Positions 1,539-29,368 are shown, counted from the first letter of the stretch. The stretch is DNA of 32,000 nucleotides from Microcoleaceae cyanobacterium (GCA_049647265.1 JBARXJ010000061.1:28750-60749); one strand, 5' to 3'. Numbers and translations are program-made. Notes: a model not told the origin generated them from the sequence alone.

Positions 1539-2174
1539 ATGATATCGAGAAATCTTTGGAACGCCAACTCAGACCTAAAAACTGCTTGTTTGCAACATCC
1601 TTTTGTCCAAGGAATTGCCACAGGAACCCTACCCCTAGCTTGTTTCCGCTATTATGTGAGTCAAGATGCCTTTTTTCTGACTGCTTTTGCCCGCGCCTAC
1701 AGTATTGCTGCGGCGAAAACCCCTGACTGGGAAGGCTTTACTACTTTCCATAGTTTAGGAGATGGAGTCGTAGAAGAATTACGTTTACACCAAAGTTATG
1801 CTGCCGAATGGGAAGTGGACTTACAGCAAATACAACCTGGCATTGCCACCCGCCGCTATACAGACTTTCTGTTAGCAACTGCCTGGGGTAAAGATGTCGG
1901 TTTAACTACAGCCGCGATGACACCCTGTTTGCGACTCTATGCCTTTCTCGGTCAAAGTTTAGCACAGTCTCAAACTTCAGCCCATCAATATAGTGACTGG
2001 ATAAAGACTTATAATGATGCTGCCTTTGAAACATTAGCGCAACAATTAGAAGATTTAATGAACCGTTATATTACCTATCAAGAAACAGAAGCAAGTTCAA
2101 TTTACCGCTATGCAATGGAATGTGAACTAGAGTTTTTTGAAGCGGCTTGGTGTAGTCAATCATCGAATTTTTAA
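1539..2174 (+). CDS. tenA: TenA/thiaminase II family protein (aminopyrimidine aminohydrolase-like)
   Basis: 211-aa ORF with an ATG start. HPFVQGIATGTLPLACFRYYVSQDAFFL and TPCLRLYAF (conserved Cys context) fit the TenA family. Confidence 0.7.
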   Translation: MISRNLWNANSDLKTACLQHPFVQGIATGTLPLACFRYYVSQDAFFLTAFARAYSIAAAKTPDWEGFTTFHSLGDGVVEELRLHQSYAAEWEVDLQQIQPGIATRRYTDFLLATAWGKDVGLTTAAMTPCLRLYAFLGQSLAQSQTSAHQYSDWIKTYNDAAFETLAQQLEDLMNRYITYQETEASSIYRYAMECELEFFEAAWCSQSSNF

Positions 2175-3082
2175 GAATAACGACTCACACTAAAAATAAT
2201 ATAATTGTAAGGGATTAATTCAGTTCGATCATAATCATTCACAATTTGACCTGTTTTGGGATCGTATAACCACTCCTCCCAGTCCCATAACCGAGACTTA
2301 TTTTCAGGAATTTGAACCGCAATATAAGATCCTTCTGCTAAACGGGCGCGAGTCGCAATATGACTAAAATCAAGACCCATATAAAAATCTTGAACAGGTT
2401 CGTTTTTATGACGGTTTGCCATTGCTTTTGTTAAGCCTAATGCCATATTTGATAACGGTGCAATTGCAGGTTGAACGGTTTCAGCTAATTGAAGTCCTGC
2501 TTTAAATACATCGGATTCTAAAAAACTGAGGGCATCTTCGTCTTCTTGATTTTTAATATTAACCGTAAAACATTTAAACGCTACCCCTTCTGTTCCTACG
2601 TTCAAGCCAATAAAAATAGGATAACCAACAATAGCAGCTTGCTGACCTTCTCGGACTCGATAAGTACTATTAAAATGGAGATGTTCAATCTGACCCGCTA
2701 CTTGATTTTGAGCATAGAAATCAAATAAGATATGATGGGTTCCACTCCCTGGATAATCTGCAACTCGCAGCCGATCTAAAGTAATTTTAATCCGAGAATT
2801 TTTTAGGCTATTGTCAGGTGTAATATTACTCGCCGATTGAATTGGAATAGCTTGCGAACTTTCAGGAGTGGGAGGAATATAACCAAAACTATGGGCAGTG
2901 CTTTGCCAAATTTTAGACTGAAATAATCCGATATTATAAGTTTTTGCTTGGCTTTCTAAGCTGTTAGTATTTTCAATTTCTCTGGCGGTTTCTTCGTCTC
3001 CCATTTCCCTTAATTTAGCCGCTATTTCTTCAGGGGGTAAGCTGCCAATTACAGATATATGATCAAACCAATTTTCTGTCAT
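2171..3082 (-). CDS. hypothetical protein (orphan, no recognisable domain)
   Basis: Uninterrupted 303-aa ORF with an ATG start. The only competitor is a 60-aa antisense ORF. The N-terminal ~100 aa are E/S/P/T-rich and the C-terminal ~200 aa look beta-rich (ITLDRLRVADYPGSGTHHILFDFYAQ...). No TM segment was seen. Confidence 0.6.
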   Translation of the reverse strand: MTENWFDHISVIGSLPPEEIAAKLREMGDEETAREIENTNSLESQAKTYNIGLFQSKIWQSTAHSFGYIPPTPESSQAIPIQSASNITPDNSLKNSRIKITLDRLRVADYPGSGTHHILFDFYAQNQVAGQIEHLHFNSTYRVREGQQAAIVGYPIFIGLNVGTEGVAFKCFTVNIKNQEDEDALSFLESDVFKAGLQLAETVQPAIAPLSNMALGLTKAMANRHKNEPVQDFYMGLDFSHIATRARLAEGSYIAVQIPENKSRLWDWEEWLYDPKTGQIVNDYDRTELIPYNYIIFSVSRYS

Positions 3083-3175
3083 TTTAAACTTTCGTGTTTT
3101 ATACTTTACTTATTTTATCTTAATCCAGTAAACTAAAATAAAGTAGAGCTTTATCATAAGTTTTGGTGTAATAAA

Positions 3176-3406
3176 ATGAAGCAAATCCCACGCATTACTA
3201 TGGACTCAGAGGTTATGGGAGGGAAACCCTGTATTAGAGGAATGAGAGTAACAGTCGGTATGATTTTAGGTTTAATGGCTTCTGGATATTCTCACGACGA
3301 TATTTTACGAACTTATCCTTATTTAGAACCGGAAGATTTAACAGCATCTTTAGCCTATGCAGCATGGCGGGTAGAAGAAGTTGAAATCCCTTTAAAAGTG
3401 CGATGA
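3176..3406 (+). CDS. DUF433 domain-containing protein (antitoxin-like)
   Basis: 76 aa. GGKPCIRGMRVTVGMILGLMASGYSHDDILRTYPYLEPEDLTASLAYA is the DUF433 signature. Its stop overlaps the next start (ATGA at 3403-3406). Confidence 0.8.
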   Translation: MKQIPRITMDSEVMGGKPCIRGMRVTVGMILGLMASGYSHDDILRTYPYLEPEDLTASLAYAAWRVEEVEIPLKVR

Positions 3407-3768
3407 AAATTTTGATTGATATGAATCTTTCACCGGATTGGATCAATGTTTTCGCCCAGCATGATATTGAAGCAGTTCATTGGTCATTTGTAGGCAATCC
3501 TTCCGCAACCGATCAAACTATAATGCAGTGGGCTAGTATAAATGGCTATATTGTTTTTACCCATGATTTGGACTTTGGGACTTTACTGGCAGCGACTAAA
3601 GTAAGTAGTCCTAGCGTCATCCAAGTTCGTACTCAAAATGTTTTACCAGATTACTTAGGAAATACTGTTATAACTGCTATTAATCAAACTCGTAATTTTC
3701 TAGAAAATGGTGCTTTAGTTACAGTAAATGAAACCCAGTCCAGGGTTCGCATTCTACCTTTTTCCTAA
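3403..3768 (+). CDS. DUF5615 family PIN-like protein (toxin-like partner of DUF433)
   Basis: 121 aa. The MKILIDMNLSP N-terminus and FTHDLDFG acidic motif are typical of DUF5615 (Mut7-C/PIN-like) proteins encoded downstream of DUF433. The 4-nt overlap suggests translational coupling. Confidence 0.75.
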   Translation: MKILIDMNLSPDWINVFAQHDIEAVHWSFVGNPSATDQTIMQWASINGYIVFTHDLDFGTLLAATKVSSPSVIQVRTQNVLPDYLGNTVITAINQTRNFLENGALVTVNETQSRVRILPFS

Positions 3769-3837
3769 GCTATTCCTCGGAATCAACAGATTCGATATGG
3801 AATAAAATAAAATAAGATAGGCAGTAACCGGGACGTT

Positions 3838-6800
3838 ATGACTGTTATTAATATTCGCGAACTCAATACCACCGAAACAGGATTTGCAGCCGAACTCTCT
3901 TTTGATGGACATACTCGTATTCCTATTAAAATTGACGACCCTTTTAACGCCAAAGAAGAACGTCGGTTAGAGTGGTATTTTGAAGGATGGTTACAACATC
4001 CCATGCTGGAAACTCACAAGGCAGAAGCTGCTGCAAATAGCGTTAAAACCTATGGTGAAAAACTATTTGAACAAGTCTTTAATAATCGCCAAGCTATACG
4101 AGAATATGAGAAAATAAAGTCTAAACTGAGTCAGGTTCAGATCGAAATTGAGAACCGTAACCCTGAGTTTCAAGCGTTGCATTGGGAAGCGATCAAAGAT
4201 CCAGAACTGCCGAGACCATTAGCGGTAGACTGTATAATGTTGCGGAAATATTGCGAACTTGCCCCGATATCTGCGGCGGTTGAATCTTTTCCCTATATTA
4301 ATGTATTGGTGGTGGTTGCCCGTCCGGATGAAGACAAAGATGTCAGTTATCGAACCATTTCTCGACCCTTAATTGAAGTAATTGAAACCAGTCATTTACC
4401 CGTTAATGTCGAGTTATTGCGTCCGGGAACTTATCAAGCCCTGTCGAAACATTTGGAAGAAAAAGGGGCAGGATATTATCACATTCTTCATTTTGACGGA
4501 CACGGGGCGTTAATGGACTATCAACAGGTTCAACAACCCAATAAACCCCAACGATATTATTATAAAGGACGCTACGGACGCAGCGATATTGAGGAATTTG
4601 AGGGGGTAAAAGCGTTTCTCTGTTTTGAACAAGAAGAAGCAGGCAAAGTAGACTTAGTGGAAGCCACGGAATTTGCTAACTTACTCACTGGAAAAAGTAT
4701 TCCGGTTTGTTTACTCAATGCTTGTCAGTCGGGGAAACAAATAGACAACGTAGAAGACTACCGCGAAACCAGTTTAGGCAGTCGGTTGATGGCGGCAGGA
4801 ATGCAGATGGTGGTGGCAATGGGATATAGTGTGACGGTGTCGGCAGCCCAGAAAATGATGCAACAATTGTATCAGCATTTATTAACCGGAAAAGAAATTA
4901 CAGAAGCCATTCGTTTAGGACGACTCGAACTCTACAATGATAAGGAACGTCAGGCTTATTTTAATCAAACCATTGAATTAGAAGACTGGCTATTGCCTGT
5001 TGTTTATTTCAACCAAACTGTTAATTTTAACTTACGACCATTTACCCCAGAAGAAGAAGAAAAATATTGGGAAAAACAGGGCAGTCAATACCATTTTTCG
5101 TTGCCAGAATATGGTTTTGTCGGTCGAGATTTGGAAATTCTTAAAATTGAAAAAGCTTTACTACGCCACAATATTTTATTATTACGGGGGATGGGTGGAA
5201 CCGGGAAAACCACCTTATTAAATTATTTACGGGAATGGTGGCAAACTACCCATTTTGCCGAAAACGTGTTTTATTTTGGCTATGACATCAAAGCCTATAC
5301 AGTTAATCAGATTTTACATGAAATCGGTCAACAGGTTTATGACAGATTTGAACAGGCAAAATTTCAAGCCATGAACCCTAACGCCCAGATGCCGAAATTA
5401 GTTCAGAAGCTAAAAACAGAATCCCATATTTTAATATTAGATAACTTAGAATCTGTTACCGGGCAAGAATTGGCAATTCAGAATACCTTATCCGCCGACG
5501 AACAACAAAAACTGAAAGACTTTCTTAACCGCTTAGTTGGGGGAAAAACCAGAATTGTATTAGGATCTCGCAGTGGGGAAGACTGGCTACGAAATGACAC
5601 CTTTAGAACCAATCTTTATCCCCTGCAAGGGTTAGACACACAAGCCCGTTCTCTGCTGGCTGAACGCATTCTTAACCGTCATGCTGCGGGGAAAGTTGAA
5701 GTTATTAAAGCAGACGATAACTTTAAACGGTTAATCAAACTATTGGCGGGGTATCCGTTAGCAATGGAAGTGGTACTCGCCAACCTGAAAAGACAATCTC
5801 CATCAGAGATTTTAACCGCATTGCAAGCCGCCGATATTAATTTAGATGAGGACAGTGAAGACAAGACAAAAAGTATTCTAAAATGTGTAGAATATTCCCA
5901 TAGTAATCTCTCGCCCACAGCCCAGAAATTGTTATTATGTTTAGCCCCATTTAGTGGGTTCATAGTTCGTTCTGCAATTCCAGAGTATGTCAAACAACTC
6001 AAAGAATTAGAACCATTTCAGGATTATGAATTTGATCAGTTTGATGATGCCATTCAAGAAGCGATAAACTGGGGATTACTATCTGTCCGGTTTGAAGAGA
6101 ATCCTCATCTACTTAACATTCAACCAGTATTTCCTTACTTCCTCAAAACAAAATTAAACGCATTAAATGCAGCCACCTATAAGGTATTACAAAAAGGCTT
6201 TAAACGTCACTATCAAGGGTTAGCAGGTGATTATCAACAATTAATGAAATCAAAAGAAGCGGACAAACGACAGATCGGCATCTTCTTGTGTCGTTTAGAA
6301 TACGAAAACCTCTACAATGCCCTAGAAATTAGTTTACAGCAACAAGATTCCGTTTCGATTGTCTATTGCTTGAGTATCTATCTTGATTTAACTGAAGATG
6401 TTCAAACCCATCTAAAGTTATTAGAATGGGTAATTGAAGCCCAAACTGCCTATCCAGATGAGATGCGTACAGGTGAAATAGGCTTAGATCTTATCCAGAT
6501 CCTTGGGTTATTGGCAACCTGTTATTTAAAAAATCAAAATTACCGAAAAGCTAAGCAATTTTACAATAAGGTAATTGATCTAACCCAACTACTTGAGGGT
6601 GTATCTGAAGAACAAAAACAGTTTACAATTGCCTGCACTTACCATTATTTGGGAAGAATTGCTTTTGAACAACGACAATGGCAGCACAGCCAACGCTACT
6701 GCAAAGACGCTCTCAATATCTTTATTAAATACGATAATCAATCTCAACAAGCTTCTATTCACCATACTTTAGGAAGAGTTGCTGAAGAACAACGACAGTG

Positions 6801-7722
6801 GCAGACAGCTCAAACATACTACCAAAAAGCCCTTGATATATACATCAAATACAGTGATCGCTTATCACAAGCCTTTAACTATTATCACCTGGGAAGGGTA
6901 GCAGAAGAACAACGACACTGGCAAGCGGCTCAAACATACTACCAAAAATCTCTTGATATTAAGATCGAATACGGCGATCGCCACTCTCAAGCCTCTAGCT
7001 ACCACCAATTAGGAATGCTTGCCCAACAACAACGGCAATGGCAAGATGCTAAAACCTACTACCAACAAGCCCTTGATATCAAAATTGAATACGGCGATCG
7101 CCCCTCTCAAGCTTTAACTTACAATAATTTGGGAATGCTTGCCCAACAACAACAACAATGGCAAATTGCTAAAACTTACTACCAACAAGCAATTGATATC
7201 TACATTGAATATGGCGATCGCTACTCTCAAGCTTTAACTTGCCACAACTTGGGGATGGTTGCCCAAGCACAACGACAGTGGCAAGATGCTAAAACCTACT
7301 ACCAACAAGCTCTCAATATCAAAATTGAATACGGCGATCGCTACTCTCAAGCCTATACCTACCATCAATTAGGAAGGGTTGCCGAGGAACAACGACAATG
7401 GCAAATTGCCCAAACTTACTACCAACAAGCCCTTGATATCTATATTGAATATAGCGATCGCCACTCTCAAGCTTTCACCTATGGGCAATTGGGTTTATTG
7501 GCAGAAGCACAGGAAGACTGGGAAACAGCAAAAACCAATTCGTTGCAAGCGTTAGAGATTTTTGCTGAGTTTGAGGATCAGCATTATCTAGATATGACTC
7601 TCAGAAACTTGGCTCGACTTTATCACACCACTGAGGATGAGAGTCTGTTAACCTCGGTTGCCTCTATATTTGGTGTTGAGGTTGAGGAGGTGCAGCGTAG
7701 GTTTGAGGAGTTACGGGAGTGA
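3838..7722 (+). CDS. CHAT (caspase-like protease) - NB-ARC/STAND P-loop NTPase - TPR repeat protein
   Basis: 1294-aa ORF. The CHAT dyad contexts are HILHFDGHG (His222) and LLNACQSG (Cys296). NTPase motifs are Walker A GMGGTGKTT (aa 451-459), Walker B ILILDN (Asp535), LGSRS, and LLAGYPLAMEV (GLPLA-type motif of NB-ARC). The C-terminal ~400 aa consist of 40-aa TPR-like units. Confidence 0.9.
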   Translation: MTVINIRELNTTETGFAAELSFDGHTRIPIKIDDPFNAKEERRLEWYFEGWLQHPMLETHKAEAAANSVKTYGEKLFEQVFNNRQAIREYEKIKSKLSQVQIEIENRNPEFQALHWEAIKDPELPRPLAVDCIMLRKYCELAPISAAVESFPYINVLVVVARPDEDKDVSYRTISRPLIEVIETSHLPVNVELLRPGTYQALSKHLEEKGAGYYHILHFDGHGALMDYQQVQQPNKPQRYYYKGRYGRSDIEEFEGVKAFLCFEQEEAGKVDLVEATEFANLLTGKSIPVCLLNACQSGKQIDNVEDYRETSLGSRLMAAGMQMVVAMGYSVTVSAAQKMMQQLYQHLLTGKEITEAIRLGRLELYNDKERQAYFNQTIELEDWLLPVVYFNQTVNFNLRPFTPEEEEKYWEKQGSQYHFSLPEYGFVGRDLEILKIEKALLRHNILLLRGMGGTGKTTLLNYLREWWQTTHFAENVFYFGYDIKAYTVNQILHEIGQQVYDRFEQAKFQAMNPNAQMPKLVQKLKTESHILILDNLESVTGQELAIQNTLSADEQQKLKDFLNRLVGGKTRIVLGSRSGEDWLRNDTFRTNLYPLQGLDTQARSLLAERILNRHAAGKVEVIKADDNFKRLIKLLAGYPLAMEVVLANLKRQSPSEILTALQAADINLDEDSEDKTKSILKCVEYSHSNLSPTAQKLLLCLAPFSGFIVRSAIPEYVKQLKELEPFQDYEFDQFDDAIQEAINWGLLSVRFEENPHLLNIQPVFPYFLKTKLNALNAATYKVLQKGFKRHYQGLAGDYQQLMKSKEADKRQIGIFLCRLEYENLYNALEISLQQQDSVSIVYCLSIYLDLTEDVQTHLKLLEWVIEAQTAYPDEMRTGEIGLDLIQILGLLATCYLKNQNYRKAKQFYNKVIDLTQLLEGVSEEQKQFTIACTYHYLGRIAFEQRQWQHSQRYCKDALNIFIKYDNQSQQASIHHTLGRVAEEQRQWQTAQTYYQKALDIYIKYSDRLSQAFNYYHLGRVAEEQRHWQAAQTYYQKSLDIKIEYGDRHSQASSYHQLGMLAQQQRQWQDAKTYYQQALDIKIEYGDRPSQALTYNNLGMLAQQQQQWQIAKTYYQQAIDIYIEYGDRYSQALTCHNLGMVAQAQRQWQDAKTYYQQALNIKIEYGDRYSQAYTYHQLGRVAEEQRQWQIAQTYYQQALDIYIEYSDRHSQAFTYGQLGLLAEAQEDWETAKTNSLQALEIFAEFEDQHYLDMTLRNLARLYHTTEDESLLTSVASIFGVEVEEVQRRFEELRE
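6661..7560 (+). repeat. Tandem 120-bp (40-codon) TPR-unit repeat, about 7.5 copies, inside the CHAT-STAND gene
   Basis: gaacaacgacaRtggca recurs at 6667, 6787, 6907, 7027, 7147, 7267 and 7387, with a degenerate copy at 7507. The phase is exactly 120 nt. GCGATCGC occurs at 6974, 7094, 7214, 7334 and 7454. Confidence 0.9.
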
Positions 7723-7732
7723 AGCGCTGCAC

Positions 7733-7770
7733 GCAAGTCAGCAAGTCAAAAGTCAGAAAGTCAGAAGTTA
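7733..7770. repeat. Short tandem repeat (7-8 nt unit, RAAGTCA-like, 5 copies)
   Basis: gcaagtca gcaagtca aaagtca gaaagtca gaagtta, 10 nt after the CHAT-STAND stop codon. Confidence 0.6.
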
Positions 7771-7800
7771 GATCTTTAAACTAACAATATTAAGGACTTT

Positions 7801-7965
7801 GAGTTATTTACTCCCTCCTGTTCCCCGTTCCCTCTCTTACAAAGTTGCTCTACGCAGGCGAACCCCCTAGCGTAAGCCTGATTCGTAGCCATGGGCTTTA
7901 GCCCTATTGCCCGTAGGGCTATAGACCGCACTTTGCGCCGTTCCCCGTTCCCTCTTCCCTGGCGC
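7801..7965. repeat. Intergenic GC-rich dispersed repeat element with 16-nt direct repeats
   Basis: gttccccgttccctct occurs at 7820-7835 and 7940-7955, exactly 120 nt apart. Internal hairpins include tagccct/agggcta. cgcaggcgaacccc (7853-7866) is the exact reverse complement of 19787-19800. Confidence 0.5.
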
Positions 7966-7971
7966 TAGGCG

Positions 7972-9231
7972 CTATAACATTTGACTAAAAAATGCGATAG
8001 TTTCCTTTAATACCTTGACAAATTGATCGACTTCATCACGGGTATTATAGAAGTAGAAACTTGCCCTTGCTGTCGAACTAACACCGAGATATTGATGTAA
8101 AGGTTGGGTACAATGATGCCCGGTACGAATAGCAATTCCGGAGTCATTTAATAGCGTTGCTAAGTCATTGGCGTGAATTTCGCCCGCAGTAAAGGTGGCT
8201 AATGCTGCCCGTCCTTCTCCCTCTGAATTGGGTTGGGGGCCATATAGGGTAATTTCTGGAACTTCTTTTAATTTTTCGTATAAATAAGCCGTGAGTTCCT
8301 GTTCGTAAGTATGGATATTCTCCATCCCAATTGCCATTAAATAATCGACTGCTGCACCGAGGGCAATAGCTTCACCAATGGCAGGGGTTCCGGCTTCAAA
8401 TTTATGAGGAAGTTCACCCGTTGTAAACCCTTCTAGAGAAACCGTTTCTATCATTTCTCCACCGCCTAAAAAAGGAGGCATTTCTAATAGTAAATCTTTC
8501 TTACCATAGAGAAAACCAATCCCAGTCGGCCCACACATTTTATGTCCGGAACCCACTAACCAATCACAGTCCATTTTCTGTACATCGATGGGTAAATGAG
8601 GTAAACTTTGACAAGCATCAATTAATACTTTTGCGCCACAATTGTGGGAAATATTAATAATTTCTTCAACTGGATTAATGCAGCCTAACGTATTAGAAAT
8701 ATGAAGTACTGATACCAGTTTAGTTTTGTCTGAAATTAATTTTTTGAATTGTTCTAAATCAAATTCTTGAGTATCAGTTAATTCAACAAACTTTAAAACC
8801 GCCCCTGTTTTTTGGGCTATCATTTGCCAAGGAACAAAGTTACTATGATGTTCCATTACGGTTAAAATGATTTCATCTCCGGGTTTGAGATTATCTAAAC
8901 CCCAAGAATAAGCGACTAAATTAATTGCTTCGCTGGCATTACGAGTAAAGACAATTTCTTGATAGGAATTAGCGTTAATAAATTTAGTTACTTTTTGACG
9001 GGCAGCTTCGTATTCATCCGTTGCTTTGGCGCTTAATGCATGAATACCGCGATGCACATTAGAATTATATTGTTGATAATAATCCTGAATTGCATCTAAT
9101 ACCGCTAATGGTTTTTGAGAGGTTGCCGCATTATCGAGGTAAACAAGAGGATGGTCATTGACTTTTTGATGCAGAATTGGGAAATCTTGACGAACTTTAT
9201 CAGCTAATGTTTTTTCTTGAATTAATGTCAT
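7972..9231 (-). CDS. sufS: cysteine desulfurase SufS
   Basis: Class V aminotransferase motifs: [12 protein letters not shown] (PLP Lys) and [12 protein letters not shown] (catalytic Cys). It is the last gene of the sufBCDS cluster. I prefer the ATG at 9231 over the upstream TTG at 9264 used by the ORF track. Confidence 0.9.
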
Positions 9232-9331: not shown

Positions 9332-10678
9332 TTAAAAACTCCGGCAGGCTACACAACGAGATAGCATTTGTCGTAAAGATTTTAAGGGCAACTGATTGAT
9401 AATTTCCCCAGCAAACGCATCAATTAACAGTTGACGACTGCTGGTATCATCTAAGCCTCGACTGCGTAAATAGAAGAGTTCATCTTCTTCTAACTGGCTG
9501 ATGGTTGCGCCGTGAGAACATTTAACGTCATCGGCGGTAATTTCTAGTTGCGGCTTGGTATTAACTCTGGCTTTCGGTGATAATAATAAGTTACGGCTGA
9601 GTTGATTTGCATTGGTTAATTGGGCGGCTTGCGGCACAACAACTCGACCATTAAATACCCCGTGGGCGCTATCATCTAAAATAATTTTATGGATTTGATT
9701 CAAAGTACCATGAGGATGATTTAACAGTAAGTTACTATGGGTATCAGCTAACTGTCTTTGTTCAATTGCCGTTAAACTATTGAGAGTAGTTTCGGTTGCT
9801 TCTCCCGTTTGATTAATATCAACTTCATGGCGGGATAATTTTGCGCCTAAACTAATGGCATGACCAATATAACGGCTATTTCTAGCTTGAGAAACCGCTG
9901 TTTTACCAATATGAAAGGCACTGCCACCATCGCGTTGTAAACGAATATGCTTTAATTCGGCATTCTCTTCTAGCCATATTTCACTCACAGTATTAGTTAA
10001 ATAGGGAGAAGTCTTTACCTTGTCAGAACAGCCCATTGTTAGGGTAGCATAGTGTTCTACAATTGTGGCAGCGCTGCCCGGTTCTGCGACGACTAAAACA
10101 CGAGGATGAGAAATGGTTGAGGTTTCTCCACTGCTGGAAATAAATAACAGATGAATTGGGATTTCTGCGACTTTATTTTTTCTCACCCATACCACAGCAA
10201 CATCATTTAAAGCAGCAGTGTTAAGGGCGCTAAATGTGGCTTTTCCACCGGGTTGACAGGCGAGATAATCACCTAAATGACTTTCTAAGTCGGCTGGAAT
10301 TTGTTCTAAATTTCCAACAAAAACATCTTCAGTAATATCGGCAACAGCGGATAAATTGGGCGCATATTGTCCGTCTACAAATACCAGGCGTGTTTTATCA
10401 CATTCGGGTAAAATTAAAGGCGCAATAGCTTCAGCATCGAGTTGAACTTTTCCAGCAGATTGGAATTTAATCTCTAATAAAGAGGATATATCTGTAAACT
10501 GCCAATCTTCATCTTTTTTCGTGGGAATGGCTAATTCTTTCGCCCAAGTTGCAGCATTGTCTCGCAACGGTTGCAATATATTAGCAATTTTACGATTAGA
10601 AATTGATGTTTCTGAAGCTAAACTAAGCAATTGCTTGAGATATAGAACTTCCGGTTTATCTTGAACTGTTGTTACCAT
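9332..10678 (-). CDS. sufD: Fe-S cluster assembly protein SufD
   Basis: ~448-aa ORF between sufC and sufS. The C-terminal [23 protein letters not shown] is SufB/SufD-fold. An ATG at 10678 follows the TTG at 10681, directly after the sufC stop. Confidence 0.9.
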
Positions 10679-10681
10679 CAA

Positions 10682-11464
10682 TTACACTCCTGCTGTTGCC
10701 GCTTCAATTACATCGTCATAGCCTTTTTCTTCTAATTCTAAGGCAAGTTCTTTTGTACCCGTTTTAATAATCCGTCCATCGGCGACAACATGAACATAAT
10801 CCGGCACAATATAATCTAATAAACGCTGATAATGAGTAATCACTAACATTGAATTGGTTTCATTTGCCAGTTGATTAACGCCATTGGCAACAATTCTTAA
10901 AGCATCAATATCTAAGCCAGAATCTGTTTCATCTAGAATCGCTAAACGCGGTTCGAGTAAAGCCATTTGTAAGATTTCATTGCGTTTCTTTTCCCCGCCA
11001 GAAAAGCCTTCATTTAAACTTCTTTCAAGAAATTCTGGCTTCATTTTAACAACATCTAACTTTTCCTGAATTAAATCATCAAAGTCAAATGCATCTAATT
11101 CTTCTAACCCTTTACTTTTTTGTTTAGCATTATAAGCCGCCCGCATAAAGTCAAGATTACTCACCCCCGGAATTTCTAAAGGATATTGAAACGCTAAAAA
11201 GATTCCCGCTAACGCCCGTTCATTCGGTTCAAGTTCTAATAAATTTTGTCCTAAAAAGCTAATTTCTCCCCCGGTAACTTCATAAGCCGGATGACCCGCT
11301 AATACTTTAGAAAAAGTACTTTTCCCCGAACCATTCTGACCCATAATGGCGTGAATTTCCCCGGCTTTTATTTCCAGGTTAAAGCCTTTGAGAATCGGAG
11401 TGTCGTCAATATTGGCGGTTAAATTATTAACCGATAAAATTACTTCGCTATTTTCTTGAATCAT
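10682..11464 (-). CDS. sufC: Fe-S cluster assembly ATPase SufC
   Basis: 260 aa. Walker A is GQNGSGKST, the ABC signature is FSGGEKKR, and Walker B is [12 protein letters not shown]. Confidence 0.95.
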
Positions 11465-11539
11465 TGGTTTGTATCTTTTCAGCTATTGATTGAGGTAGTT
11501 CATTTATACTGAACTGAGGTTGTGAGGTTGAAGAACTGA

Positions 11540-12976
11540 TTATCCCACACTTCCTTCTAACTTCAGACTCAATAATTGGTCGGCTTCAGCGGCAAATTCC
11601 ATGGGTAACTTATTGAATACATCTTTACAGAAACCACTGACAATCATGGAAACTGCATCTTCTTCAGAAATTCCCCGTTGAGTTAGATAAAATAATTGGT
11701 CTTCCCCAATTTTAGAAGTAGAGGCTTCATGTTCAACTTTCGCCGTATTATTATCGACTTGAATATAGGGGAAAGTATTGGCTTGAGATGTATTCCCAAT
11801 CAACATTGAATCACATTGAGAATAATTTCTTGCGCCTTTTGCTTTCGGCCCCATTTTGACTAAGCCGCGATAACTATTAGAAGATTTTCCGGCAGAAATC
11901 CCTTTAGAAATAATTGTACTGCGGGTGTTTTTGCCAATATGAACCATTTTAGTTCCCGTATCGGCTTGTTGCATATTATTCGTCAAGGCAACAGAATAGA
12001 ATTCCCCAACGGAATTATCTCCGACTAATACACAGCTAGGATATTTCCAAGTAATCGCAGAACCTGTTTCTACTTGTGTCCAAGAAATCTTAGAATTAAC
12101 GCCTTTACACAATCCTCGTTTTGTCACGAAGTTGTAAATTCCGCCTTTACCGTTTTTATCCCCGGCAAACCAATTTTGCACTGTAGAATACTTAATTTCA
12201 GCATTATCTAATGTTACCAATTCTACAACGGCTGCGTGCAATTGATTGGTATCAAACATGGGCGCAGTACAACCTTCGAGATAAGTAACAGAAGCACCTT
12301 CTTCTGCTACAATTAACGTCCGTTCAAACTGTCCAGAATCTCCGTTATTAATCCGGAAATAAGTAGACAAATCCATCGGGCATTTTACCCCTTTAGGAAT
12401 ATAGACAAAAGACCCATCACTAAATACAGCAGAGTTCAAGGCTGCAAAGAAATTATCTCCAACCGGAACAACACTACCGAGGTATTTTTCTATCAATTCT
12501 GGATGGTCTTTGACTGCCTCAGAAATCGAACAGAAAATGACTCCATCTTCTGCTAATTTTTCTTTAAAAGTTGTGGCAACTGAAACACTATCAAATACCG
12601 CATCAACCGCAACATTGGCTAAGCGCTTTTGTTCTGATAAAGGAATTCCCAACTTTTCAAATGTATCTAATAGCGTCGGGTCAACTTCATCTAAACTGCC
12701 CTTTTTCTCTTGCAGTTTGGGGGCAGAATAATAGATAATTTTTTCGTAGTCAATTGCCGGATAATGAACATGGGGCCAGGTGGGTTCCTCCATCTTCAAC
12801 CATTGGCGATAGGCTTTGAGTCGAAAGTTCAGCAAGAATTCTGGTTCATTTTTCTTAGCCGAAATCAGACGAACCACATCTTCGTTGAGTCCGGCAGCAA
12901 TAGTATCTGACTCAATATCGGTAACAAAACCGTATTTATAAGGTTGGTTAACTAATGTTTTAACAGACGCGCTCAT
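11540..12976 (-). CDS. sufB: Fe-S cluster assembly protein SufB
   Basis: 478 aa. It has an N-terminal YKYGF and a C-terminal [23 protein letters not shown], and is the first gene of the operon. Confidence 0.95.
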
Positions 12977-13161
12977 AAGCTTTATAGTGTTAGTGTTCGA
13001 TTCAGGGATGTTCTCAAAGGAAATAGGGTTTATTGTTGGTTGGCGCGTTATTCGTCATTTGTGACTCGTTGGCGCAGAACAGAGAAGACAAAACGCTGTA
13101 ACTGCCGTCCCAAAAGCTGGAAACCAACCGATGACAAAGAACTAATGACAAAGGACTAAAA

Positions 13162-13215
13162 CAACACATTTGTTTCTTATGTCTATTTTAAGCTACATTA
13201 ACAACAAGTGAATTG
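13162..13215. promoter_or_regulatory. Two candidate SufR operators (CAAC-N6-GTTG-like half-palindromes) in the sufR/sufB divergent region
   Basis: CAAC acattt GTTT lies at 13162-13175 and CAAC aagtga ATTG at 13202-13215. Both sit in the 270-nt gap between sufB and sufR. The Synechocystis SufR operator is reported as CAAC-N6-GTTG. Confidence 0.4.
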
Positions 13216-13246
13216 TCAAAGTCCAAACCTGTAAACTTTTGTTAAG

Positions 13247-13906
13247 ATGATGGCCACCTCCCAGCAGCATTCCACAAAACAAGACATCCTACAACAGTTG
13301 TTAAAACAAGGTTCTGTCACATCCATCGTGTTGGCAGAGTCCCTCGAGATTACACCCCAGGGTATTCGTCGCCATCTCAAAGACTTAGAAGCAGAAGGGT
13401 TGATTGAGTATGAGTCTGTTCAAGTGGGGATGGGACGACCTCAACATCTTTACCGCCTCACTCCCCAGGGACATAACCAATTTCCCAACCGTTATGATGA
13501 GTTTGCCATTTCTTTTCTCGATACCCTCAGCGAAACGATGGGACGAGAACAGGTTAGTCAAATTCTGCAAAAACAATGGCAACGTAAAGCAATAGAATAT
13601 CGTCATCAAGTCGGAAATGGTTCGGTTAAACAACGGGTAATTAATTTAGTAGAATTGCGAAAAGCAGAAGGATACATGGCAGAATGGTATGCGGTTGAAC
13701 CTCAAACTTCAGATGCAGGCCTGCAACAGTATATTTTAACTGAACATCATTGCGCGATTTCTAACGTCGCTGAGTCATTTCCTAGCGTTTGTGGTCATGA
13801 ACTCGAAATGTTTAGTGCTGTACTGTCTGATTGTACTGTAGAACGAACTCACTGGATTGTTAATGGTGAACATCGCTGTGGTTATTTAATTACGCCAAAA
13901 AGTTAA
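13247..13906 (+). CDS. sufR: iron-sulfur cluster biosynthesis transcriptional regulator SufR
   Basis: 219 aa, divergent from sufB. It has an N-terminal winged-helix DeoR-like HTH (LAESLEITPQGIRRHLKDLEAEGLI). The C-terminal Cys pattern is C-X12-C-X13-C-X14-C (CAISNVAESFPSVCGHELEMFSAVLSDCTVERTHWIVNGEHRC). Confidence 0.85.
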   Translation: MMATSQQHSTKQDILQQLLKQGSVTSIVLAESLEITPQGIRRHLKDLEAEGLIEYESVQVGMGRPQHLYRLTPQGHNQFPNRYDEFAISFLDTLSETMGREQVSQILQKQWQRKAIEYRHQVGNGSVKQRVINLVELRKAEGYMAEWYAVEPQTSDAGLQQYILTEHHCAISNVAESFPSVCGHELEMFSAVLSDCTVERTHWIVNGEHRCGYLITPKS

Positions 13907-13958
13907 GTATTTTTGCTTAAATTAAATTGATATTTGCTTTTATTTTAATTCAATTAAT

Positions 13959-14330
13959 ATGGAATTTTTAACACAAGAAGAAGTGATTCAAGTCGATGCT
14001 GCGTTATTGTCATCTAAAGAAAAGTTTTCAACTCGGCTAGCACTTTACGCCAAAAGATGTTTACAGCAAATTTCTAAAGAAAAACAAATTGATATTGAAT
14101 CGATTCAATCCGAACAAATTCAAGCTTGGATTCGACAAGATGAAGTGATTCAAAAACAAATAGAACTCGATAATAGTTTTGAAGCCTTTTTTACCAAGTT
14201 AGTGATATCTTCATTAAAGCCGTTGAGGCAAATTGCCAGCGAAGAAAATCAACCGGTTGAAAGTTTAACTGTTAAACAAGTTATCGCCTGGTTTGAACAG
14301 CAAAGCAAAAAGAATTTAGCAATTGAATAA
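13959..14330 (+). CDS. hypothetical protein
   Basis: 123-aa ORF with an ATG start. Its stop abuts the next start (TAAATG). An internal duplication is visible: IESIQSEQIQAWIRQDE versus VESLTVKQVIAWFEQQS. Confidence 0.5.
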   Translation: MEFLTQEEVIQVDAALLSSKEKFSTRLALYAKRCLQQISKEKQIDIESIQSEQIQAWIRQDEVIQKQIELDNSFEAFFTKLVISSLKPLRQIASEENQPVESLTVKQVIAWFEQQSKKNLAIE

Positions 14331-15215
14331 ATGTTTCCTTTTTTTCTTCCCCCAGAGGTAAACAGTTTAACAGAATATACCTCGATTAATTTAGCAAAAA
14401 ATATTAAAAGGTCTCTGATTTCAACCCCCTTTTATCCACCCGGTATTCAAACGGCTTATACTTGTCAGGGCAACGATTCACCCCCGATTCTCTTCTTACA
14501 TGGATTTGATAGTTCTCTGTTAGAATTTAGTCGAATTATTCCCTTTATTTCCCCTCAATATCAAACTTGGGCAATTGATTTACTGGGGTTTGGTTTTACT
14601 CAAAGAATTCCTGAAATTAATTATAATCCCGAAACCTTAAAATCCCATCTTTATTACACTTGGAAAACCTTAATTAATCGCCCAATCATTTTAGTCGGTA
14701 CATCAATGGGAGGCGCGGCTGCAATTGATTTTGCTTTAACCTATCCTGAAGTCGTTCAAAAGTTAGTTTTAATTGATAGTGTGGGATACTCTGGTAGCTT
14801 TCCCATTGGTATGTTATTAATTCCGCCCATAGATTCTATCTCGATAGAATTCTGGCGACAACGCAAACAACAAGCCTTAAACTTTGCACCTTTTTTATGG
14901 ATTAATGCCAGTCAAATAGAAGCGATTAAATTTACCTCACTTCACTTAAAAATGCCTTATTGGCAAGACGCGATGATATCGTTTATGAAAAGTGGAGGAT
15001 ATGGGGATATAGCTGCCAGAATCTCTCAAATTAAACATCCAACCCTAATTTTATGGGGTGATAAAGATGAAACCTTAGGCACAAAAGATGCAATATTATT
15101 CCATCAAAATATAGCGAATTCTCAACTGATTTGGATGAAAGATTGTGGTCATGTTCCCCATTTAGAACAGCCTGAGCGAACAGCAAAAGCTATTTTAGAA
15201 TTTTTATCGTCTTAA
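14331..15215 (+). CDS. alpha/beta fold hydrolase
   Basis: 294 aa. LFLHGFDSS (oxyanion region), the GTSMGG nucleophile elbow, and the CGHVPHLEQPE catalytic His motif are present. Confidence 0.85.
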   Translation: MFPFFLPPEVNSLTEYTSINLAKNIKRSLISTPFYPPGIQTAYTCQGNDSPPILFLHGFDSSLLEFSRIIPFISPQYQTWAIDLLGFGFTQRIPEINYNPETLKSHLYYTWKTLINRPIILVGTSMGGAAAIDFALTYPEVVQKLVLIDSVGYSGSFPIGMLLIPPIDSISIEFWRQRKQQALNFAPFLWINASQIEAIKFTSLHLKMPYWQDAMISFMKSGGYGDIAARISQIKHPTLILWGDKDETLGTKDAILFHQNIANSQLIWMKDCGHVPHLEQPERTAKAILEFLSS

Positions 15216-27405: not shown

Positions 27406-27615
27406 CGTTTCCGACTTAATTCCAATACCTTATTAATCCGGTGGCTAAACACCTCAATCTGGGTAAAATTGAAATTTAGTAGCGATCGCGCTTGTTTAAC
27501 ATTTAAAGTAGCCTATGAGAGTTAAACTTCGGATCAGTCGCTATCATGAAGGATGGTTGTTTGCATCCCAACTGGCAAGCATTGAACTGGTTAAGTGCAG
27601 CGAGAGTTATATTTT

Positions 27616-29355: not shown

Positions 29356-29368
29356 TAGCCGCAAGTTA

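Follow-up and report, generated by a model that had tools for sequence, protein, structure and literature searches.

Introduction

NLR-like proteins of multicellular bacteria in which a CHAT protease, a NOD and a repeat array are joined in one chain were reportedly described by Koonin and Aravind in 2002. CHAT is listed among the effectors of the 'all-in-one' NLRs of multicellular bacteria (Dyrka et al. 2020, bioRxiv 10.1101/2020.01.06.895854). A preliminary description of the locus treated here stated that the class is catalogued but has no known trigger or substrate, and a literature search agrees, having turned up neither a trigger or substrate for a CHAT-NB-ARC-TPR protein nor experimental data on phage protection. 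The window, a stretch of 32,000 nucleotides from a Microcoleaceae cyanobacterium, encodes a protein of this kind, here called CHAT-NLR, with the domain order and phyletic setting of the 'all-in-one' CHAT-NOD-repeat NLRs. Taken alone, its gene is a member of the catalogued class. The surveys treat such proteins as self-contained, whereas the window CHAT-NLR has a dedicated neighbour. For the two partner genes considered below, P303 and P151, no description was found in the survey texts searched (the class of Dyrka et al. 2020).

What other systems does the window protein resemble? The top fold matches of its NOD are NB-ARC STAND proteins, those of the Apaf-1/CED-4 apoptosome and the plant CNL/TNL resistosomes, which have in common with it a GxGGxGKTT P-loop and a GLPLA-like motif. 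Their common logic runs from a repeat sensor through nucleotide-dependent oligomerisation to proximity activation of a caspase-family protease. The window protein differs in that the protease is fused, and not recruited via CARD as in Apaf-1/CED-4, in that the sensor is TPR and not WD40 or LRR, and in having DN in Walker B and IQP at the putative MHD position.

In Craspase and SAVED-CHAT, a CHAT protease activated by an upstream sensor has a dedicated protein substrate; in the type III-E CRISPR Craspase (gRAMP with the TPR-CHAT protein Csx29) this dedicated substrate is Csx30, which Csx29 cleaves. SAVED-CHAT is also the nearest solved CHAT fold to the window protein by Foldseek. These systems lack a STAND module, and the sensors that activate them are of the RNA-guided or cyclic-oligonucleotide kind.

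The gasdermin-protease systems of bacteria and fungi offer a second precedent. In Runella a CHAT protease cleaves the gasdermin encoded beside it, and NACHT, TPR, LRR or WD40 domains occur in many of the proteases linked to gasdermins (bioRxiv 10.1101/2021.06.07.447441). In Runella zeae bGSDM with Roc-COR-CHAT (Johnson et al.), CHAT shares its chain with a nucleotide switch and/or a repeat sensor, as in the window, and cleavage of the neighbour leads, in the known case, to cell death. The neighbour is about 250-300 aa long, and the window too has a partner of about 300 aa beside its sensor-protease. The window sensor is NB-ARC plus TPR instead, and P303 varies far less from phylum to phylum than gasdermins do.

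The membrane-associated EACC1-caspase system, as set out by Kaur et al. (2020, PMC7159879), likewise has two genes, one for a small, constant, partly hydrophobic protein and one for a caspase-superfamily protein in which STAND or repeats are possible, and on that account it resembles the P151 version of the module. EACC1 there has a single TM segment, and its gene, which occurs mainly in actinobacteria, lies 5' of that for the caspase, whereas P151 has eight helices, is usually convergent and downstream, and is specific to cyanobacteria.

The locus had also been likened to the Avs and bNACHT antiphage NLRs. The likeness holds for the effector-STAND-repeat layout but not for membership: PADLOC matched neither Avs nor bNACHT to the CHAT-NLR, giving nothing beyond generic TPR models and one weak match, to SAVED_CHAT, and NACHT scored 17.3 bits, below the Pfam cutoff of 26.7. 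Many Avs do have TPR-like sensors (bioRxiv 10.64898/2026.01.04.697583). Known Avs are single genes with nuclease-type or other effectors, and their irregular, shape-complementary sensor contrasts with the window repeats, which are regular and evolve in concert.

Results

The features of the locus, in window coordinates, are these.

2171-3082, minus strand: partner gene P303, 303 aa, uncharacterised family; divergent from and upstream of the CHAT-NLR gene (linkage)
3126-3777, plus strand: toxin-antitoxin cassette between the two module genes (Pfam, blastn breakpoints)
3176-3406, plus strand: DUF433, in the toxin-antitoxin cassette (Pfam)
3403-3768, plus strand: DUF5615/PIN-like, in the toxin-antitoxin cassette (Pfam)
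3838-7722, plus strand: CHAT-NB-ARC-TPR NLR-like protein, 1294 aa, complete intact ORF
3838-4158, plus strand: N-terminal domain (aa 1-107) with a DPF...LEWYFEGWL motif (invariant alignment columns)
4159-4968, plus strand: CHAT caspase-like protease domain (aa 108-377) (Pfam, invariant dyad, Foldseek)
5113-6165, plus strand: NB-ARC-type NOD (aa 426-776), including the winged-helix region (Pfam, Foldseek, motif conservation)
6166-6486, plus strand: helical spacer from NOD to TPR (aa 777-883) (AF2 helices 778-877)
6487-7590, plus strand: TPR array, about nine units of 40-43 aa (aa 884-1251) (Pfam, TRF, repeat HMM)
7591-7719, plus strand: C-terminal tail after the TPR array

The architecture proposed earlier, CHAT followed by an NB-ARC-type STAND module and TPR, is borne out by profiles, conservation and fold, both CHAT and NB-ARC scoring above their Pfam cutoffs. 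Ahead of CHAT lies a domain of three beta-strands and three helices (AF2 secondary structure) that is without a Pfam family, nothing in Pfam rising above noise; its motif is kept as LRWYLEDYLQ in relatives at 27% identity. The CHAT profile PF12770, which belongs to the clan CD peptidases of caspase-hemoglobinase fold, matches aa 108-377 with 68.5 bits against a cutoff of 24, over profile positions 33-274 of 289. The His/Cys dyad stands where it had been placed, with H222 in LHFDGHG (codon CAC, 4501-4503) and C296 in LLNACQSG (codon TGT, 4723-4725). In sets of 20 and of 40 cyanobacterial orthologs these two residues never change, nor do G453-T459, D535, R578 or G638-A642; M643 is constant among the 20 and nearly so among the 40. 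The dyad is still invariant after addition of relatives at 31% identity from an acidobacterium and Roseofilum, and K457 and GYPLAM are likewise kept down to about 30% identity. An AF2 model of aa 1-880 (pLDDT 73.7) puts H222 (GHG) just after beta-strand 216-220 and C296 (NACQSG) just after 290-294, as in caspases. Foldseek matched the model to SAVED-CHAT (8tl0 chains A-D, E 3e-6 to 7e-6). In a separate, weak alignment (E 0.2-0.4) C296 falls on the AC motif of PDB 8rot. The CHAT domain is predicted to be a catalytically competent caspase-like protease.

For the NOD, NB-ARC (PF00931), of the AP-ATPase clade of STAND NTPases, is a marginal pass, with 25.0 bits against 23.5 and only profile positions 10-109 of 248 covered; AAA_16 of Pfam matches too. 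In fold, the best Foldseek matches are the NB-ARC domains of plant NLRs (9h2l, 8xuo, 6j5t, 8bv0), Apaf-1 (1z6t) and CED-4, with E from 8e-11 to 1e-7. Walker A GMGGTGKTT (5188-5214, with the K457 codon AAA at 5206-5208), Walker B ILILDN (D535 at 5440-5442) and LLAGYPLAMEV (aa 635-645, GYPLAM being aa 638-643) all lie at the residues and coordinates first given for them, and a sensor-I-like GSR motif contains R578. Among cyanobacterial orthologs GMGGTGKTT, GSR and GYPLAM are invariant or nearly invariant. Walker B departs from the usual pattern, its second acidic residue being Asn (D-N and not D-D/E, against hhhhDD). The site where alignment inspection would tentatively place MHD has an invariant I761-Q762-P763 and no His.

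Pfam recognises the array as TPR_12 (187.6 bits), and also as TPR_2, TPR_10 and TPR_1; TRF finds a 120-nt period repeated 5.9 times at 79%. An earlier count of at least ten TPR-like units was slightly generous, as a repeat HMM finds eight units of 40 aa in the window protein (two to ten across the family), and about ten are reached only by also counting a C-terminal cap and, at the N-terminal end, one or two degenerate units. Units are 69% identical within a protein versus 54% between orthologs, with unit positions 2, 9 and 31 hypervariable, and the array is thus regular, with a 40-aa repeat that evolves in concert. Concerted evolution with few hypervariable positions is reported for fungal NLR repeats (PMC10907252), and it is this pattern that the window array appears to follow, not obviously that of a shape-specific Avs-type sensor.

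The preliminary description took the CHAT-NLR for a self-contained single-protein system, and missed the P303 gene, linked to it in what sequence comparison indicates is a portable, conserved two-gene module. The pair is kept together in three related genomes, with L003/L006 and L007 among the loci compared, in which the flanking genes otherwise differ; blastn of the window against L003 or L007 finds homology exactly at 2171-3125 and 3778-7719, and none outside, its outer limits falling precisely on the ends of the two genes. In L007 the two genes are directly divergent, about 106 nt apart, with the slot between them empty, and in L003 HicBA occupies the identical site, as the blastn breakpoints show. 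The toxin-antitoxin cassette of the window is an insertion that splits the divergent pair and lies outside the conserved module. In the window the module is flanked by metabolic genes (TenA, suf operon), and no CRISPR or CBASS gene is found among the annotated window ORFs.

What is P303? The protein has no match in Pfam, PADLOC, PHROGs, NCBIfam or PDB sequences, none of 27 family members has a Pfam match at E up to 5, and the family profile finds no match among PDB sequences. It lacks a transmembrane segment, its most hydrophobic 19-aa window reaching 1.32 on the Kyte-Doolittle scale, and no similarity to gasdermins or known effectors was found by Pfam, PADLOC or the PDB profile. A gasdermin identity, considered for P303, was not detectable by these means, and an EACC1 identity, considered for P303 and P151, found no match in Pfam scans run to E 1 or 5. 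In PADLOC the two genes gave no match to a defence-system model that would pair them.

The P303 family comprises at least 1257 proteins from many bacterial phyla and one archaeal MAG, 60-70% identical across phyla, and P303-CHAT modules occur in Acidobacteriota, Chloroflexota, Gammaproteobacteria and the archaeal MAG. P303 homologs adjoin CHAT-NOD-TPR homologs in three of three genomes inspected, from Acidobacteriia (L086), Ca. Angelobacter (L087) and Roseofilum (L088/L089), where a CHAT protein of 1150-1230 aa precedes P303 on the same strand and 1-76 nt separate the two. The L086 and L088 CHAT proteins, 27% identical to the window protein over about 720 aa that include the N-terminal domain, CHAT and the P-loop, are full-architecture homologs. 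A restriction-modification gene lies near the L086 module. In a metagenome sample of 80 P303 loci, 22 were too short to judge; a same-strand CHAT-NOD homolog is present in at least 38 of the 58 informative loci and is the immediate neighbour in 26, while seven loci that extend 3 kb or more to either side lack a nearby CHAT homolog. In one protein (P0481) the P303 domain is fused to CHAT. It is also fused to lipase-like, phosphoesterase, peptidoglycan-hydrolase and LRR domains, standing C-terminal to the varied enzymatic domains. From its position and by analogy with the systems described above, P303 is the predicted partner of the CHAT-NLR and probably the target of its protease.

Most cyanobacterial orthologs of the CHAT-NLR are paired with P151, a 151-aa helical protein unrelated to P303, with eight helices and a two-helix hydrophobic hairpin. 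Of 67 informative cyanobacterial loci, 49 have P151 beside the CHAT-NLR gene; three arrangements of the two genes occur, with P151 usually 3' and convergent. The P151 family numbers 429 proteins, all from cyanobacteria. In an NJ tree the window clade is nested among the P151-paired orthologs. Since most of the cyanobacterial orthologs have this unrelated partner, the window clade has swapped partners, and since P151 fills the partner position in them, P303 and P151 look like interchangeable downstream components of the CHAT-NLR. Neither partner is nearby in the remaining 18 loci, which include all those of Microcystis; there the CHAT-NLR may act alone or with a partner in trans.

All members of the CHAT-NLR subfamily come from cyanobacteria. 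Many of the hosts grow as filaments or colonies, and unicellular Crocosphaera and Microcystis have members as well. Orthologs are 56-67% identical over 880 aa across cyanobacterial orders. Their distribution is patchy and sometimes multi-copy (Mastigocoleus has three paralogs and one P151), and their genomic position differs in every genome inspected. One relative carries an N-terminal PNP_UDP_1 domain. No relative was found in the viral contigs searched, a result that is uninformative for defence.

Discussion

How might the two genes work together? Our main reading, to which we give a probability of roughly 0.5, is that window positions 2171-7722 are a portable two-gene NLR-like module for conflict or cell death, in which a ligand-activated protease processes P303. 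The CHAT-NLR would be a single-chain sensor-executioner, with a TPR solenoid, an NB-ARC-type switch and a CHAT protease behind the conserved N-terminal domain. A trigger would bind or perturb the TPR array, ADP/ATP exchange would allow the NOD to oligomerise, proximity would activate the CHAT protease, and the protease would process P303, which would carry out a toxic or defensive output. The processing of a partner would resemble that in the gasdermin-CHAT systems, P303 being no detectable gasdermin. The observed parts of this reading are the domains with their invariant catalytic residues, the linkage of the two genes and the change of partner; a role of P303 as substrate or effector is suggested by its position and by precedent. 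Against the reading count the seven metagenome loci and the 18 cyanobacterial loci in which the pairing is missing, the lack of a transmembrane segment or of any gasdermin or effector similarity in P303, the negative PADLOC result, and the Asn of Walker B together with the narrow NB-ARC score. A conflict-system flavour is given by the patchy, multi-copy spread, the identity of P303 across phyla, the toxin-antitoxin insertion, the PNP_UDP_1 relative, the P303 fusions and the concerted evolution of the TPR units.

The conservation of P303 is unusually high for an effector, and it could be a regulator, chaperone or adaptor instead. One may ask, then, whether the CHAT-NLR is self-sufficient and cleaves host or invader proteins directly, with P303 or P151 not its substrate but a regulator, such as an inhibitor or antitoxin-like brake, a chaperone, an adaptor or a guarded bait. 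The 18 partnerless loci and the three Mastigocoleus paralogs with their one P151 speak for this, and conservation across phyla is easier to understand for the interface of a regulator or adaptor than for an effector, which would evolve fast; the position of the P303 domain C-terminal to varied enzymes is also that expected of an adaptor or regulatory module coupling effectors to a constant component. It is, however, two unrelated proteins that occupy the partner position of a single NLR lineage, which interchangeable outputs explain more easily than a specific inhibitor of one protease, and the known CHAT systems with a dedicated neighbour, gasdermin and Csx30, use that neighbour as substrate. 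We consider a self-sufficient CHAT-NLR unlikely, though a serious competitor of the two-gene reading.

The repeats raise a different issue. The greater likeness of TPR units within than between orthologs, their varying number and the few hypervariable positions are the signature of fungal NLR repeats, and the subfamily is confined to cyanobacteria of which many form filaments or colonies. Might the module serve self/non-self recognition or developmental cell death in filaments or mats, like fungal HET-type NLR allorecognition, with the TPR array sensing a polymorphic cellular protein, and not phage defence? Such a role seems improbable to us, as the subfamily is present in unicellular Crocosphaera and in Microcystis, P303-CHAT modules extend to Acidobacteriota, Chloroflexota, Gammaproteobacteria and an archaeal MAG, and the inserted toxin-antitoxin cassette and the restriction-modification gene near L086 fit mobile defence loci. 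That the CHAT-NLR is a housekeeping or regulatory protease-scaffold, its TPR array an assembly platform and its neighbours incidental, with no role in death or defence, is very hard to credit: its identity across cyanobacterial orders is high for a conflict gene and the window flanks are metabolic, but the spread is patchy and sometimes multi-copy, the genomic position changes from genome to genome, the module has discrete boundaries, and the partner linkage persists across phyla.

Returning to the two-gene module with a processed partner, we advance, as a tentative proposal, that P303 and P151 might be two new families of protease-licensed executioners, non-gasdermin outputs exchangeable below one CHAT-NB-ARC-TPR receptor lineage. 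If this is true, the window would hold a ready receptor-protease-substrate pair with which a bacterial caspase-type NLR could be dissected biochemically for the first time.

The receptor-protease

Three features of the window concern us here:

2171-3082, minus strand: gene for P303, a 303-aa protein
3126-3777: 652-nt cassette with a DUF433/DUF5615 (PIN-like) toxin-antitoxin pair
3838-7722, plus strand: gene for the NLR, a CHAT-NB-ARC-TPR protein

The preliminary description of the third as a CHAT protease joined to an NB-ARC-type switch and a TPR array is confirmed as a whole. The frame is intact (1294 aa), and the residues singled out lie where they were placed: H222 in LHFDGHG (codon CAC, 4501-4503), C296 in LLNACQSG (codon TGT, 4723-4725), the P-loop GMGGTGKTT (5188-5214, K457 at 5206-5208), Walker B ILILDN (D535) and LLAGYPLAMEV (aa 635-645). 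By Pfam, CHAT scores 68.5 bits (cutoff 24) over aa 108-377, and NB-ARC, confined to the first 100 profile positions, 25.0 bits (cutoff 23.5); TPR_12, TPR_2, TPR_10 and TPR_1 match strongly over aa ~880-1250, and NACHT scores under threshold. The H222-C296 dyad and the P-loop do occupy conserved positions, being invariant when 20 or 40 orthologs are aligned, as are D535, R578 and, within GYPLAM, the GYPLA core, with M643 nearly invariant among the 40. The dyad is still invariant after relatives from other lineages, at 31% identity, are added, and the CHAT domain is predicted from its sequence to be catalytically intact.

Sequence searches of PDB chains with aa 1-880 and with the CHAT region, single and profile, returned noise or a weak match to the CHAT protein 8rot, so that a fold search was needed. 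In the AF2 model of aa 1-880 (mean pLDDT 73.7), H222 and C296 directly follow core beta-strands, in caspase-like fashion. The top PDB matches of the model are the NB-ARC domains of plant NLRs, Apaf-1 and CED-4 (E 8e-11 to 1e-7), and its protease part matches SAVED-CHAT 8tl0 (E 3e-6). A second acidic residue in Walker B is usual in STAND NTPases; here the motif reads ILILDNLE (5425-5451, aa 530-538), with Asn536 invariant and an invariant E538 two residues on. Asn536 may make for slow or altered hydrolysis. That the architecture is CHAT, an NB-ARC-type switch whose Walker B (DN) is deviant, and a repeat array, we regard as practically certain.

What of the sensor end? The repeat region has a 120-nt period, in which a repeat HMM finds eight regular 40-aa TPR units with degenerate flanking units; the array proposed earlier thus stands, the count of at least ten being slightly generous. 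The number of units varies from 2 to 10 across the family. Units are 69% identical within a protein versus 54% between orthologs, and the variation within a protein falls mostly at positions 2, 9 and 31, less at 39, 6 and 13. To judge from these comparisons, the units are in concerted evolution with a few hypervariable sites, the pattern described for the repeat domains of fungal NLRs (as summarised in PMC10907252). The Avs-type sensor, in contrast, is irregular (bioRxiv 10.64898/2026.01.04.697583).

Distribution and genomic setting

The NLR is identical to a protein of a 'Microcoleaceae cyanobacterium' MAG, and more than 1470 database proteins match its aa 1-880; among the matches listed, identities of 58-67% are found in Nostocales, Microcystis, Pleurocapsales, Coleofasciculus and others. 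When one genome per species was scanned, 247 relatives came up, and the 80 loci kept from these are cyanobacterial except for four labelled 'uncultured bacterium', 'uncultured Lyngbya' or 'Clostridia'. Lyngbya is a cyanobacterium by name, and the 'Clostridia' label is probably due to a mis-binned MAG. Mastigocoleus, Prochloron and one Crocosphaera MAG carry multiple copies. The gene lies at a different position in each genome inspected, and its flanks in the window are ordinary, with DUF1800 and TenA upstream and sufSDCB and sufR downstream. MmeI is normally a single polypeptide; at 27595-31165 the window encodes an MmeI-type (type IIL) restriction-modification enzyme as two ORFs:

27595-29355: MmeI_N, helicase spacer and DUF559 (Vsr-like endonuclease)
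29369-31165: MmeI methyltransferase, TRD and C-terminal domains

A Xenococcaceae protein (P0112, locus L030, 3258-7829) has an extra PNP_UDP_1 (PF01048) nucleoside-phosphorylase domain N-terminal to the whole CHAT-NOD-TPR, NOD being the nucleotide switch, and has no partner gene nearby. In a Microcystis locus (L002, 13712-14625 and 12007-12666) the NLR gene, also partner-less, is followed by small ORFs lacking Pfam domains, which from their sequences we read as a toxin-antitoxin pair. A DUF433 gene and two short genes with TIR domains follow it as well, a setting that resembles a defence island.

P303 and the NLR as a two-gene unit

The NLR-like reading, reasonable as it was, was incomplete, since it missed both the partner gene in the window and P151, the unrelated partner of most cyanobacterial orthologs. 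Searches of Pfam, PADLOC, PHROGs, NCBIfam and PDB sequences returned nothing for P303, whose gene lies divergently upstream of that for the NLR in the two nearest relatives as well (L003/L006, 88%; L007, 80%). At the DNA level the window is homologous to these loci over precisely 2171-3125 and 3778-7719, the homology ending at the two gene ends, and the genes outside the pair differ among all three genomes. In L007 the two genes are ~106 nt apart and the slot between them is empty (7938/7944); in L003 (7224-7944) a HicB/HicA pair sits at a breakpoint identical to that of the window's cassette. The ~106-nt divergent intergenic region thus acts as a cassette slot. Since the slot is empty or refilled and the homology stops at the gene ends, the unit is the P303/NLR pair and the DUF433/DUF5615 pair a later insertion, and we rejected the latter as a member of the system. 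It is very likely that P303 and the NLR form a discrete two-gene unit. Scanning 2000-8100 for promoters and terminators was uninformative, since shuffled sequence gave more promoter-like sites than the real one.

One might think that the linkage is mere synteny of close relatives, an explanation we reject because the flanks are not the same and the linkage is met again in other phyla. At least 1257 proteins belong to the P303 family; their identity to the window protein is 60-70%, and they fall into 639 clusters at 50% identity; the listed hosts are Methylobacter, Acidobacteriia, Herpetosiphonaceae, Anaerolineae, a MAG named Ca. Angelobacter, a Hodarchaeota MAG and cyanobacteria. Three distant contexts were inspected (L086, Acidobacteriia; L087, Ca. 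Angelobacter; L088/L089, Roseofilum), and in each a P303 homolog follows a CHAT protein of 1150-1230 aa on the same strand, after a gap of 1-76 nt. The L086 and L088 CHAT proteins have the NLR's whole architecture, with 27% identity over ~720 aa spanning the N-terminal LxWYxExxLQ domain, CHAT, the P-loop and the GxPL motif; that of L087 is of another type, with TPR N-terminal and CHAT C-terminal. On the same L087 contig, 2.4 kb downstream of the CHAT/P303 pair, a second TPR-CHAT gene (1218 aa) is followed by a 292-aa gene and a Trypsin_2 gene (10312-14865 in all); the 292-aa product, 19% identical to the window P303 in the family alignment, was not counted as a member.

With the P303 profile we fetched 80 metagenome loci, 22 of them too short to judge. 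A same-strand CHAT-NOD homolog is present at 38 of the 80 (23 upstream, 15 downstream) and is the immediate neighbour at 26; at seven loci whose flanks reach at least 3 kb on each side there is no such homolog. One family representative (P0481), as called from metagenome sequence, fuses a P303 domain to a CHAT domain, and no P303 relatives were found in viral contigs.

Exchange of partners

Neighbouring ORFs were called and clustered in 74 loci with a complete NLR gene. A single recurrent family emerged, the ~151-aa P151, at 49 of the 74, or 49 of the 67 with adequate flanks. P151 mostly lies downstream in convergent orientation, at a distance of a few hundred bases; Pseudanabaena and Tumidithrix have it downstream in same-strand orientation, and Crocosphaera, Stenomitos and Phormidesmis upstream and divergent. 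Since their closeness survives rearrangement, the arrangement argues for functional coupling of P151 to the NLR. The window does not encode P151, and in some other clades, all sampled Microcystis among them, neither partner is near the NLR. Mastigocoleus testarum BC008 has three NLR paralogs (L037, L039, L056), only the last adjoined by P151, so one partner may serve several receptors in trans. In four genomes of two orders, the NLR/P151 pair is followed, 1.5-2 kb downstream, by genes for a glyoxalase-family protein and a large serine recombinase (L004, 14181-16027; L005, 12791-14664; also L009 and L023), which hints that some copies are on an integrative element.

All 429 database members of the P151 family are 'hypothetical' and lack Pfam domains. 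The AF2 model (pLDDT 81, pTM 0.76) is an eight-helix bundle whose last helices (92-108, 115-135) are strongly hydrophobic (Kyte-Doolittle up to 2.16), and it has no significant Foldseek match in PDB or BFVD. Sequence searches of Pfam, PHROGs, NCBIfam, PADLOC and PDB gave nothing apart from a weak match of one member (P0121, aa 58-137; E 1.5e-3, 16.7 bits) to the PADLOC candidate PDC-M35B, spanning the linker and hydrophobic hairpin. The NLR has no PADLOC match to PDC-M35, and no mention of the name PDC-M35B was found in the literature searched.

How did the window clade come by P303? The two partner profiles are unrelated (hhalign probability 0.4). In a neighbour-joining tree of the first ~900 aa of NLR relatives, rooted on the L086 and L088 proteins, P151-linked genes account for the deepest branches, and for most branches, of the cyanobacterial subfamily, and the P303-linked clade of the window and L003 is nested within them. 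On the simplest reading, this clade would have exchanged P151 for a P303 gene typical of a more distant CHAT-NOD-TPR subfamily. One receptor-protease lineage has two apparently interchangeable, uncharacterised partner families, a module variant that is new as far as we can tell.

Comparison with known systems and a possible mechanism

CHAT-NOD-repeat proteins are among the nearest bacterial counterparts of the apoptosome. The 'all-in-one' CHAT-NOD-repeat NLRs of multicellular bacteria have been catalogued (bioRxiv 10.1101/2020.01.06.895854), and the NLR belongs to that class, so that the gene by itself is not a new kind. Model matching places it outside both Avs and bNACHT. A recent survey describes bacterial Apaf-1 orthologs with N-terminal caspase-like proteases, the closest in cyanobacteria; these have WD40 sensors, whereas the window NLR has a TPR array. 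The P151 version of the module recalls the EACC1-caspase two-gene system of Kaur et al. 2020 (PMC7159879), with differences in the topology of the partner, in gene order and in taxonomy; no EACC1 profile match was found in it. In the literature searched, with subscription-journal papers mostly outside it, we found no description of P303 or P151, so that an earlier one is possible, and no trigger or substrate for the CHAT-NOD-repeat class.

What might the pair do? A CHAT protease cuts a neighbouring gasdermin, and gasdermin-linked proteases frequently carry NACHT, TPR, LRR or WD40 modules (bioRxiv 10.1101/2021.06.07.447441). From this precedent and the STAND paradigm of Apaf-1, plant NLRs and Avs, we infer that a trigger would act on the TPR array, that nucleotide exchange and then oligomerisation would follow, that proximity would activate the CHAT protease, and that the protease would process P303, with a toxic or defensive output. 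The P303/NLR module would work like a gasdermin-protease pair, though P303 fails every sequence test for a gasdermin. We put the probability of the whole proposal at only about one half, because the substrate-effector step is much less certain than the architecture and the two-gene unit.

The main rival holds that P303 is a regulator or adaptor, and not the substrate-effector of the protease. It accords with the extreme conservation of P303 and with the varied enzymatic domains behind which the P303 domain is found: in metagenome gene calls it is C-terminal to a C25-like peptidase, an LCAT-type alpha/beta-hydrolase, a PF04185 phosphoesterase, a LysM and VgrG3-like peptidoglycan hydrolase, or LRRs. 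The cut gasdermin beside a CHAT protease speaks for processing of P303. Allorecognition in place of phage defence is compatible with processing of P303 and would leave the mechanism unchanged.

With a discrete two-gene unit and two alternative partners in hand, the question of the protease's substrate becomes a direct experiment. P303 and P151 are two sizeable protein families outside current defence-system catalogues, and P303 is a very conserved, unannotated partner in a unit with an apoptosome-like receptor-protease.
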